DNA from: an uncultured Candidatus Poseidoniales archaeon
GTDB taxonomy: Archaea > Thermoplasmatota > Poseidoniia > Poseidoniales > Poseidoniaceae
Direction: 5' to 3'
Assembly: GCA_964516645.1 (NCBI GenBank)
Contig: CAZEXE010000008.1
Coordinates: 1-45,517 of the forward strand
Length of the DNA: 45,517 bases
The notes under the pieces are model-generated. The model had not been told where the DNA came from. It was given only the letters and a program-made list of their open reading frames with translations, and made no database searches. Position 1 is the stretch's first letter. Each line of letters begins with the position of its first letter. This document shows positions 2,420 to 11,470 of this stretch, one piece after another. The position numbers and the translations under genes were made by a program.

Positions 2420-5400
2420 ATGTCGTCGAACAGCCGTGACCGCCGTAAAATTACAACTTCTTTGCTATTGGTTTTGATGTTTTTATTCGCAGATTTAGCA
2501 TTGCCACAAGCAGTGCCAAATTGGCCAAATGAAGAACTAGAGGACTCATTTATCGTTTTACAAACGACATCTTCATTCAATCCAACTAAGGATGCAGGAA
2601 TCGATTCTGCTAATCCTAACACGAATTACGGAAGCGATGAAACTGCAGGCTTGGGCTTAGGTGTTGCAGGAGAATCTCGTATTTTGATTTCTTTCAACAA
2701 CTCGGTTCCGAGCGGTGACTTGGTTAATGATGCAATCCTCAACTTAACATGTGGAATAGACCCTCTACAACTCGGAGAGATTAACATCTTCACTTCACGA
2801 ATGAAGCGTGCATGGGATGAGGCTAATGTTACATGGAACAACCCAGATGATGGTATCAACTGGGGATTATATGGTGCAGATGATGATTCTGACCATGGCA
2901 CATGGGAACCGCCATTCTATGGATATGCGAACAACACGTTCCAAATCGATGTTACAGCAATCGTTCAAGATGCTGTGATCAATTCTAGGAGCTCAATTGA
3001 CCTCCTCCTAGCAGCCACAGGAAGTGCCTACACCTGTCATATGTCTGATTCGATGGCAACCAATAGTAGGCCTTCTTTGACGATTACTCACCAAAACGGT
3101 ACTCACACAAATGGAGGTAGTTTGTCTCCTAACTTCGTAGAAGATGGTGCAGCATTAATGGATGAATCCAAATTCTTGCTATCAGCAGCCACAAACCCAG
3201 AACTATCTTGGGAAAGCATGTCGGGAACTGCTGCTCAAGTACAATTATCTATCAGCCCTGATTTCAAGTCTGATGCTGATGATGCATGGTATTACAGCAC
3301 TGTTGATAATTCATCTCTGTTCACTATCAATGCAGGTGATGGTGCAATGGATGTCCCTATTGGACATGAACTTTCCAATTCTACCACTATGTATTACCGT
3401 ATGAGAGCGATTGACTCTTCTGACACCATAGGGCCATGGCAAACAGGTTACTTCCATCTTCCTGGCCATACTGTTACAGAAGTAGGTGGATATGGTCAAA
3501 TTTCTTTCACTTTAGATGACCTTGGTCTTTCCGAGGATACCATCGAAGACACATTTGTGGATTCCAATGGAGTTGCCAAGAATGCTAACATGGGTAACGA
3601 TGATAATATCACAATAGGGTCATCCTCTTCTACAGACCAATACGGATTGCTAAGGTTTAACCTCGACGATATAGGCCTACATTCTAATTCTTCAATCATC
3701 TCAGCTAACTTGGCATTAGATAGAACAGGTTACAGTGGAACTGCAAATGTCAGTTTCCACATTATGGATGGTGACGAATGGACAGAAAACGGAGTCACAT
3801 GGAGAAAGTATGATGGAACATATTACTGGGACGATGGAGGAAGAGTTCCTTCAATGTCAGTAGGCCAATTTGAGGGTGATCAATCTTCTTCTTCAATCGA
3901 GGTTAATCTAACCGTAGCAATTCAGAAATGGATTGATGATAATAATGCTGCAAACCAAGCAGGAACTTCAACTTCGAATTCTCTCGAATTGATGATGGTT
4001 GCATCGACATGGGGTATTGAAGAATCAACTACACAATTTGTAAATCTGTGCAGCACAGAAGCGACAGGTTGCGACCAACCTGAATTGGAGATTACATATG
4101 ATTGGGATAGTGATGGACCACCAGATATTGCTGACCCAATCTCCCCATCTGGAGGAGAAGGTGTGTGGAACTTGACAGGTGACAACCTATCTGGAAACAC
4201 AACACCCAAATTGACTTGGCAAACTATGAGCCAAGGCTACAACACAGCTGGACAAATGTATTTACAAATTTCATCTGATGCAGAATTCAGGAATATTATC
4301 TATGACTATGATCCGAGCGTCAATGTAACCTCAAGTGGTTTTTGGGATTCTTGGGGGACTGAATCTGGTGCGCCAACACATCTACCTGATGGAGTTCTAT
4401 ATCACTGGAGAACTGCTGAATTGAATACTACTTCTGGTCATCATTCGTGGTGGTCCAGTACCTCATTCCTTGTTTCGGGATTAGAATCGGAATATTTGCA
4501 GGATGATGAACATCAATTACGTCTTTCTCACGGAAATGCTACAACCGCTGGAGACTCTCCAAGTTGTGAAGACACATATATTGACAGTGGAACTCCAAGT
4601 AGTAACTACAACGGAGAAGAAGAGATGCAAGTCTCTTACAATACATTCCCATCAGAGGCTACAATACTACTGGGATGTGACCTTACCAGCCATCTATTGC
4701 CTAGTGGTTACGCTGTAAAGACTGCAACTTTGAAAATGAGATTGGCTGACTATCCTACCGGAACTCCAACCATTGGTGCGTGGGAGAGCAGACAACACAA
4801 TTGGTCCGAGTCAACGTCCACTTGGTCAGCATTTGATGGTACAAATAGTTGGGGAACTAGCGGTGCCAAAGGTTGGGAGAGAGCTGGACTTCTGGATACA
4901 GAAGCCTTGGATAACTCATACTCTGCTGGCGACTGGGTAGAATTTGACATCACATTAGCCGTTCAAAATGCAATGCGTGAAGACCGTGCTGTGGACCTCA
5001 TTCTAGGAATTGTAGGAGTTGGCACAGGTAGTGATAGAGACGCATTATTCTATCCAAATAATGCAAATTCTGCAAGCAGAGCTGAAATTTCCTTCGTATA
5101 TGTTCCTGGTTCTGATGCCCTACCGTCTGAACCAGTTCCACAAACACCACTGAATGGATCTTGGTCTGTTGATAGTGGAATCAATCCAGCCCCTGACCAA
5201 AATCCTCATTTATCTTGGAACTTATCTAATAGCGGAGTCAATGTTGGTGGTTGGTCAATTGAATTAGATACTACAAGTAATTTCAATTCACCAGATTTGA
5301 TCATGGCAACCAGTTGGACTGACACCGGGTTCGATATAACAAACCAAACATACGATATGACTTCTCTACTTGAAACGGGTAACACATGGTACTGGAGGGT

Positions 5401-11470: not shown

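Follow-up and report, generated by a model that had tools for sequence, protein, structure and literature searches.

What does a 327-kDa protein carrying two series of recurring modules do for a planktonic archaeon, and how old is the array of which it is made? This question is raised by an open reading frame (ORF) at positions 2420..11470 of the + strand in a 45,517-nucleotide (nt) stretch of DNA from an uncultured Candidatus Poseidoniales archaeon (assembly GCA_964516645.1, contig CAZEXE010000008.1), which as a whole is referred to below as the window. The ORF is uninterrupted, starts at the first possible ATG and encodes 3016 amino acids (aa) with the predicted mass given above. We assigned the gene to Candidatus Poseidoniaceae (marine group IIa, MGIIa), and its archaeal neighbours include the genes for the replication factor C (RFC) small subunit and LonB. 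An earlier note, made from the letters alone, had read the product as an archaeal surface giant with a seven-fold super-repeat of a lectin-like and an FN3-like module, and had suggested multivalent glycan binding of several specificities. Here, we established how this giant is built and folded, which signals of surface topology it carries, and that its modules are ancient and fixed in number. It consists of a signal peptide, seven CBM96 (carbohydrate-binding module family 96) and six FN3-like modules, eight immunoglobulin (Ig)-like domains, one transmembrane (TM) helix and a tail.

Seven CBM96/DNRLRE modules recur along the giant protein

The head of the protein (aa 48-2186) is made of CBM96 modules of 175-197 aa each and FN3-like modules that measure, with their linkers, 131-144 aa each. 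The anchor motif of the repeat had been placed at nt 2591, 3548, 4571, 5558, 6533, 7526 and 8444 (aa 58, 377, 718, 1047, 1372, 1703 and 2009), with spacings of 306-341 aa; the ORF matched these positions exactly, the spacings being, in order, 319, 341, 329, 325, 331 and 306 aa. In its strict form, the pattern D-[TA]-x-[VIL]-D-S, which the earlier note had ascribed to every copy, was found at five of the seven sites (mean 0.07 and maximum 2 in 2000 shuffles), while copies 4 and 7 carry the looser variants DTWVADS and DSYIGS. Alignment of the seven units brought the W.E..TW element and the RP.L end, both already pointed out in the earlier note, into register together with a T..VQ helix, and units 1-6 were each seen to continue into a second module ending in Y/W-x-W-R-x-R-A-like strands.

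Scans of the whole protein showed that Pfam CBM96 (PF24517) matched with 227 bits and NCBIfam DNRLRE_dom (NF033679) with 328 bits, each over seven stretches, the curated cut-offs being 26 and 34 bits, respectively. When the protein was sliced, every copy scored above at least one of these cut-offs and five of the seven above both, the exceptions being copy 2 (Pfam only) and copy 5 (NCBIfam only). The resemblance to DNRLRE/CBM96 proposed in the earlier note was thus borne out by both databases. In leave-one-out comparisons, in which a profile hidden Markov model built from six copies is scored on the seventh, the CBM copies reached 53-83 bits, against a best score of at most 10.4 bits in 500 shuffles.

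All copies lie on the + strand. CBM96/DNRLRE 1 (aa 48-227; 2561..3100) scored 50.6 bits with Pfam, 63.4 with NCBIfam and 65.6 in the leave-one-out comparison; copy 2 (aa 367-563; 3518..4108) scored 34.3 with Pfam and 52.7 in leave-one-out and gave, on its own, no NCBIfam match. The corresponding three values were 44.8, 42.9 and 81.2 bits for copy 3 (aa 708-897; 4541..5110) and 45.2, 70.7 and 82.7 bits for copy 4 (aa 1037-1220; 5528..6079). Copy 5 (aa 1362-1549; 6503..7066), which had no Pfam match when scanned alone, reached 48.3 bits with NCBIfam and 68.6 in leave-one-out. Copies 6 (aa 1693-1867; 7496..8020) and 7 (aa 1999-2186; 8414..8977), both covered by a structure model, scored 68.2 and 30.8 bits with Pfam and 87.6 and 61.1 bits with NCBIfam, respectively. 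Copy 7 is joined directly to the stalk, with no FN3-like module after it. An extra Trp-containing loop follows the TWN motif in six of the seven copies; in copy 6 it is replaced by a unique loop between the invariant Cys1777 and Cys1793.

The repeat is not visible to simple self-comparison. BLASTP of the giant against itself at E 1e-3 returned no off-diagonal match, because the paralogous copies are only 24-36% identical in amino acids, and at the DNA level the gene contains no tandem repeats and only 20-28 nt remnants. The periodicity that had been proposed as a check was seen in the alignments and in the leave-one-out profiles, whose scores far above shuffles uphold the seven-fold super-repeat.

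FN3-like spacers and the modelled fold of the head

The six FN3-like copies, likewise on the + strand, scored 29-45 bits in leave-one-out comparisons against at most 9.8 bits in shuffles. Spacer 1 with its linker (aa 228-366; 3101..3517) scored 35.7 bits and has a weak Ig_Rha78A_N match; spacer 2 with linker (aa 564-707; 4109..4540) scored 28.9 bits; spacer 3 with linker (aa 898-1036; 5111..5527) scored 32.3 bits and matched Ig_Rha78A_N with 24.2 bits, below the cut-off of 27.4; and spacers 4 (aa 1221-1361; 6080..6502) and 5 (aa 1550-1692; 7067..7495), each with linker, scored 44.5 and 43.4 bits. No copy passed the Pfam fn3 gathering score of 25 bits, the best being spacer 6, FN6 (aa 1868-1998; 8021..8413), with 21.2 bits. 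In the model FN6 adopts the FN3 fold and matches the tandem FN3 structures 6MFA, 7Y6E, 2IBB and 1QG3, and the leave-one-out profiles show that the remaining five copies are homologous to FN6. The beta-sandwich that the earlier note had described after six of the copies corresponds to these six FN3-like modules.

With 46 orthologs as input, AlphaFold2 modelled aa 1693-2223 (CBM6-FN6-CBM7) at a mean predicted local distance difference test (pLDDT) of 88.9 and a predicted TM-score (pTM) of 0.82. Foldseek returned 8WAB as the top match (E 3e-8, TM-score 0.71-0.72), followed by 7VBO (TM-score 0.68) and then by FN3 tandems, so that the model of copies 6, 7 and FN6 agrees with solved CBM96 modules and FN3 tandems, a structural comparison that the earlier note had also advised. 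A profile of the seven copies searched against the PDB found 7VBO (E 2e-11) and 8WAB (E 4e-9), and a phmmer search of the PDB with the whole giant found no match. Among viral structures, Foldseek gave only generic phage proteins bearing FN3 or CBM96 domains and no specific relative. The CBM copies are thus members of CBM96/DNRLRE by sequence and by fold, the fold having been modelled for copies 6 and 7.

The seven-fold array is old and its copies are kept apart

A word-indexed protein search found 89 relatives, down to 32% identity; all but three shorter entries measure 2997-3102 aa and cover 97-100% of the query. Some of them bear the automatic NCBI label 'DNRLRE domain-containing protein [Candidatus Poseidoniaceae archaeon]'. 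In the literature on giant surface or surface-layer (S-layer) proteins of marine group II (MGII) we did not find the family described, only general remarks on adhesion. The occurrence of the same full-length protein on many contigs and in many species ruled out a misassembly or a pseudogene.

In a scan of one genome per GTDB species, at least 208 loci held a relative; the results on layout at the level of the locus rest on 80 of them, which are labelled Poseidoniaceae, Poseidonia, Poseidoniales or generic Euryarchaeota metagenome-assembled genomes (MAGs). Every ORF that is not cut short in these 80 loci has exactly seven CBM and six FN3 modules at near-constant positions, down to 31% identity. 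Length variation of the gene among relatives had been thought worth looking for; the copy number turned out to be invariant, the opposite of a typical adhesin. Three loci that share the RFC synteny (L035, L040 and L055) were deposited as MAGs of Salipiger bermudensis, a Verrucomicrobiales bacterium and a Rhodobiaceae bacterium, respectively, labels that are probably the result of binning contaminants.

An exhaustive profile search of 1.84 billion representatives gave 23,367 proteins with such modules. The alternating layout C-F-C-F-C-F-C-F-C-F-C-F-C (C, CBM96; F, FN3) occurred in only 12 full-length clusters at 50% identity (2997-3089 aa), and the other multi-copy proteins were pure CBM96 (CCCC) or pure FN3 (FFFF) arrays. 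The alternation being unique to these 12 clusters, it is, together with the count of seven, the signature of one family.

Against P0089, the most distant of the aligned orthologs (33% identity), each CBM and each FN3 copy of the window protein found its best match in the copy of equal position. It follows that these lineages diverged after the seven-fold array had formed, and that its copies have since been kept separate. On these alignments the seven modules are not interchangeable, each having existed as a distinct ortholog from a time before the sampled Poseidoniaceae split. A recent amplification is ruled out by DNA divergence and by positional orthology, which together with the short DNA remnants sustain the idea, put forward in the earlier note, of an old and maintained array. 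Conservation differs among the modules: mean identity among orthologs is 0.40 for CBM5, 0.41 for CBM1, 0.56 for CBM6 and 0.62 for FN6, which makes unit 6, close to the stalk, the best-conserved part of the head. The giant as a whole evolves fast compared with its neighbours, with an identity of about 42% against about 80% for RFC and about 71% for the LigB-RidA protein.

Surface topology, stalk and tail

The signal peptide (aa 1-31; 2420..2512, +) has an RR-K n-region, a hydrophobic core and the sequence P-Q-A, a consensus kept in the orthologs. Apart from it, a hydropathy scan found only one strongly hydrophobic segment, the TM helix (aa 2912-2936; 11153..11227, +), with an ortholog identity of 0.60. 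Between the head and this helix lies a stalk (aa 2187-2903; 8978..11128, +) of eight Ig-like domains, probably of the Big_1/Big_2 type, which are marked by recurring V-x-V-x-x-G boundaries and D..GN motifs; the stalk is collinear with the product of the next gene, and the Big_1 score of the giant, 23.9 bits, is below the cut-off of 34.9. The model of aa 2187-2903 contains eight beta-sandwich domains (pLDDT 89.4, pTM 0.40) and matches strings of Ig domains in gp210, GhpA, DSCAM, titin and bacterial S-layer proteins. The low pTM fits Ig domains arranged as beads on a string, and the contrast between the two models would suggest a compact head on a flexible stalk.

The protein ends in a cytoplasmic tail (aa 2937-3016; 11228..11470 including the stop codon, +) with a poly-Asp/Glu run, a Pro-rich stretch and a Trp motif. 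The conserved form of the latter is DG-T-E-W...G-x-W-W-Y-R...W-x-E-W, in which four Trp are invariant among the orthologs. A Pfam scan of this tail and of that of the 859-aa protein encoded next to the giant, at E values up to 10, gave no useful match, and of archaeosortase-type or known S-layer sorting signals only a faint GG_III-CTERM was found (9.7 bits, cut-off 22). The poly-Asp run of the tail is encoded by a (GAT)n stretch (11242-11282), which draws spurious low-complexity matches from metatranscriptome contigs and is best masked when reads are mapped onto this gene.

The ectodomain contains further marks of exposure. The giant has 67 N-x-S/T sequons compared with 40 +/- 5 in composition shuffles; the excess was seen in all 19 orthologs tested, and for 35 of the 67 sites the sequon recurs in 11 or more of these orthologs. 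Several modules contain pairs of Cys that are invariant among orthologs. With a pI of 4.05, 1.1% Lys and 21% Ser plus Thr, the protein has a composition common to three other large exported proteins of the window, from which the cytoplasmic proteins differ. We read the giant as a type-I membrane-anchored cell-surface protein that is probably heavily N-glycosylated. The archaeal origin suggested in the earlier note is borne out, and its surface location is supported by the signal peptide, the TM anchor, the sequons and the Cys pairs; the further suggestion of glycan binding with several specificities is a prediction, and the alginate-binding groove of the family's founder, discussed below, is not kept.

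Two other large exported proteins of the window, of 1089 and 1130 aa, likewise have a pI of about 4.1, little Lys and a single C-terminal TM helix. The former (28373-31642, +) has Ig-like domains of the NPCBM_assoc/FixG_C type, enriched sequons and a cytoplasmic zinc-ribbon tail; the latter (32526-35918, +) matches no Pfam family and has far fewer sequons than expected (1 as against 12.8).

A stalk-only paralogue and an upstream inverted repeat at a conserved locus

The order of the locus is orf317, RFC (-), giant (+), 859-aa protein (+), permease-EF-hand (-) and LigB-RidA (-), and it is kept wherever a contig reaches far enough, including the relatives at 32-35% identity. The product of the 859-aa gene (11517..14096, +) begins with a signal peptide and continues through Ig-like domains and a TM helix to an acidic tail with Trp motifs at its end. 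It is collinear with the last 830 aa of the giant (BLASTP 26% over 824 aa, E 1e-54) and matches Big_1 with 39.5 bits and Big_2 with 29.7 bits, both above cut-off. The giant can thus be described as a CBM96-FN3 head on a stalk of which a stand-alone copy adjoins it. In every locus that extends past the giant, the 859-aa gene lies directly downstream in the same direction, which suggests that the two encode partner proteins or form an operon. The tail of the neighbour (13737-14093) carries a related Trp motif, ...GWYIDSNG....W.....EW, and in two distant clusters (P0159 and P0160) the giant bears the neighbour's type of tail, which hints at tail exchange between the two paralogues.

Upstream of the giant, 66 nt before its ATG, lies a perfect inverted repeat, GGCCACCC-TAC-GGGTGGCC (2354..2372, +), followed by the conserved BRE/TATA-like sequence (resembling an archaeal promoter) AGCCGAAAGGAAACTATACC, the whole reaching to about 2392. 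The repeat is kept in the closer orthologous loci, L001-L025, with arms that change symmetrically: the arms are GGACACCC/GGGTGTCC in L007 and L014, and AGCCACCC/GGGTGGCT in L018, L020 and L023. Locus L034 has a different GC hairpin at this position, the 43%-identity clade lacks the repeat, and an Rfam scan of it gave no match. The inverted repeat could serve to regulate the giant gene, as a transcription-factor palindrome or as a hairpin.

Further downstream, on the - strand, the window encodes an amino-acid permease fused to a C-terminal EF-hand pair (14097-15752), a fusion also seen beside the locus in most relatives; a dioxygenase of the LigB family joined to a RidA/L-PSP domain (15861-17321); and a second LigB-family gene (17251-18144), which overlaps the LigB-RidA ORF by about 70 nt.

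Comparison with known modules and surface proteins

The founder of CBM96 is TM6-N4 of the alginate lyase Dp0100 from Defluviitalea phaphyphila (7VBO; PMC9971899), which belongs to the same family and has the same beta-sandwich fold as the copies of the giant; they share the N-terminal Asp, Ala-x-Leu, W..E..TW and the C-terminal P-x-L. TM6-N4 occurs singly, within a polysaccharide lyase, and holds alginate in a groove lined by Lys and Arg, whereas the giant has seven acidic modules in a non-enzymatic, membrane-anchored protein and does not have the basic groove residues. The best structural match, 8WAB, was deposited as a DNRLRE domain-containing protein and is the chondroitin-sulfate-binding CBM of a chondroitinase. 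It too is a single enzyme-attached module, for a sulfated polyanion, and it keeps K27 and R36, which the copies of the giant do not. The surface proteins and the disaggregatase of Methanosarcina (Adindla et al. 2004, PMC2447325) are archaeal and, like the giant, carry one or more DNRLRE domains; the alternation of CBM96 and FN3, the count of seven, the Ig stalk and the TM helix with tail were found, in the exhaustive profile search, only in the Poseidoniaceae family.

Since a CBM in the CAZy sense is part of a carbohydrate-active enzyme and the giant has no catalytic domain, its copies are CBM-like modules in a non-enzymatic protein. Giant adhesins made of repeats, which present a ligand-binding head on an Ig-like stalk, include the grappling-hook protein GhpA of Aureispira (9FLY/9FLP) and bacterial RTX-type adhesins. 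These adhesins and the giant have in common a string of Ig-like domains that holds, or in the giant would hold, binding modules off the cell, and the stalk model matches fragments of GhpA. GhpA and the RTX-type adhesins are bacterial, and their stalk repeats are usually near-identical and variable in number; the repeats of the giant are old, diverged and invariant in number, and neither the variable number nor the near-identity that mark repeat-expansion adhesins was found in it.

A proposed multivalent surface binder and its alternatives

What the giant does at the surface may be approached from its parts. We propose that a flexible stalk of eight Ig-like domains would rise from the single C-terminal TM helix and carry a head in which seven CBM96/DNRLRE beta-sandwich modules are set apart by an FN3-like spacer between neighbours. 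Such a head could form a multivalent surface for polymeric ligands, gaining avidity from seven weak sites in series; the likeliest ligands would be polysaccharides of phytoplankton or of marine gel particles, and the role either to tether the cell to particles or to capture polymer at its surface. Characterised CBM96 members bind polysaccharides (PMC9971899), and DNRLRE domains accompany alginate, hyaluronate and pectate lyases and are also part of archaeal surface proteins (PMC9971899, PMC2447325). The experimental anchors are the two solved modules, 7VBO and 8WAB, with alginate and chondroitin sulfate as their respective ligands. MGII has been linked to particles and to adhesion domains (PMC4511931, PMC6461757), and a binder or tether fits this known ecology of MGIIa. 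Homology supports a polymer-binding beta-sandwich and names no ligand; glycan binding by the modules is suggested by this homology. Our leading explanation is a multivalent binder or tether at the surface, with polysaccharides or gel particles as its ligands, and we give it about an even chance of being right.

A number of observations weigh against this proposal. The case for any ligand is an argument from homology. In 7VBO, mutagenesis assigned alginate binding to K10, K22, K25, K27, K31, R36 and Y159 (PMC9971899). Across the seven copies in 20 orthologs these residues are not kept, except that copy 4 has a Lys at position 25 in 12 of the 20. With the basic groove residues absent from the copies in this way, the ligand cannot be transferred from the CBM96 founder; the basic groove is a trait of the alginate-specific member and not of the whole CBM96 family. 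As for the structural Ca2+ site of 7VBO (Asp82, Asp142 and backbone atoms), the equivalent of Asp82 is Asp only in copies 2, 5 (partly) and 6, the numbering near 140-145 being uncertain. All modules are strongly acidic (pI 4.05-4.35). Among orthologs, conservation is lower in the columns homologous to the groove (0.42-0.62) than elsewhere in each domain (0.55-0.71), a comparison that includes buried core columns and is weakly informative for that reason. DNRLRE is also the presumed binding domain of a polyhydroxybutyrate (PHB) depolymerase, and so the ligand need not be a carbohydrate (PMC12278694). In three metatranscriptome runs, the only matches were to the (GAT)n low-complexity stretch (11242-11278). 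Finally, a niche adhesin would not usually have a fixed copy number and a single conserved syntenic locus and be present in every relative examined, and such invariance of number, presence and place fits a core component of the envelope at least as well.

The giant might accordingly be read as part of an S-layer-like canopy or fibril coat, in which the CBM96 and FN3 modules are structural and mediate protein-protein contacts or bind the cell's own N-glycans, perhaps together with the stalk-only paralogue. All Poseidoniaceae relatives examined have one copy of the gene, in unchanged synteny and with a constant domain count of 7+6+8; DNRLRE was first described in archaeal S-layer and surface proteins (PMC9971899, PMC2447325), the enriched sequons and the poorly conserved groove-homologous positions agree with such a role, and the pTM of 0.82 for CBM6-FN6-CBM7 suggests a fixed geometry between modules. 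The stalk model also matches the bacterial S-layer proteins Sap, EA1, SbsB and SbsC, but these matches are generic, of one string of Ig domains to another. The literature search found no described MGII S-layer protein; on the other hand, the giant has no archaeosortase-type or known S-layer anchoring signal, and a chain of 21 beta-sandwich domains resembles a fibril more than a lattice protomer. On balance, we consider an envelope component a possible but doubtful explanation.

The conservation of the C-terminus points in another direction, to a surface receptor or sensor that would relay binding by the head via the TM helix to a Trp-rich tail docking an intracellular partner. The TM helix and the tail motif with its four invariant Trp are among the best-conserved parts of the protein, the neighbouring paralogue has a related tail, and tail types have been exchanged in P0159 and P0160. 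No signalling domain could be recognised in the tail, however, which matched no Pfam family at E values up to 10 and can equally be read as an anchoring or sorting element, and a single-pass protein with about 2900 aa outside the cell is an unlikely signal transducer; this function is improbable in our view. Much less probable still is an enzyme acting on polysaccharides, disaggregatase-like or a lyase, with an unrecognised catalytic module. Lyases often carry DNRLRE domains, and the Disaggregatase-related repeat PF06848 gave two weak matches (17.4 and 14.3 bits), but both fall short of the cut-off (33.9) and overlap with CBM96 modules. No catalytic domain was found in the giant, every stretch of which is CBM96, FN3-like, Ig-like, TM helix or tail; an enzymatic role was rejected, as no stretch is left for it.

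Implications for MGIIa

MGII archaea are among the most abundant planktonic archaea and are uncultured, and their interaction with particles and phytoplankton has so far been argued mostly from generic 'adhesion domains' and archaella (PMC6461757, PMC4511931). The giant is a concrete and testable candidate for a molecule behind it: it is found in every relative examined, at a constant locus, and the solved relatives of its modules bind acidic polysaccharides of algae or animals. Single modules are small enough for expression and screening. Independently of its ligand, the array of seven positionally orthologous modules offers a clean natural case of an old internal repeat in which selection keeps the copies separate. 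A bolder proposal, which we think rather unlikely, is that the modules are seven distinct recognition sites, fixed in position since the origin of Poseidoniaceae, and that the giant forms with its stalk-only paralogue the principal surface structure of MGIIa. If this were true, one conserved gene pair would set the attachment of MGIIa to phytoplankton-derived polymers, and possibly also the way in which viruses recognise MGIIa cells.

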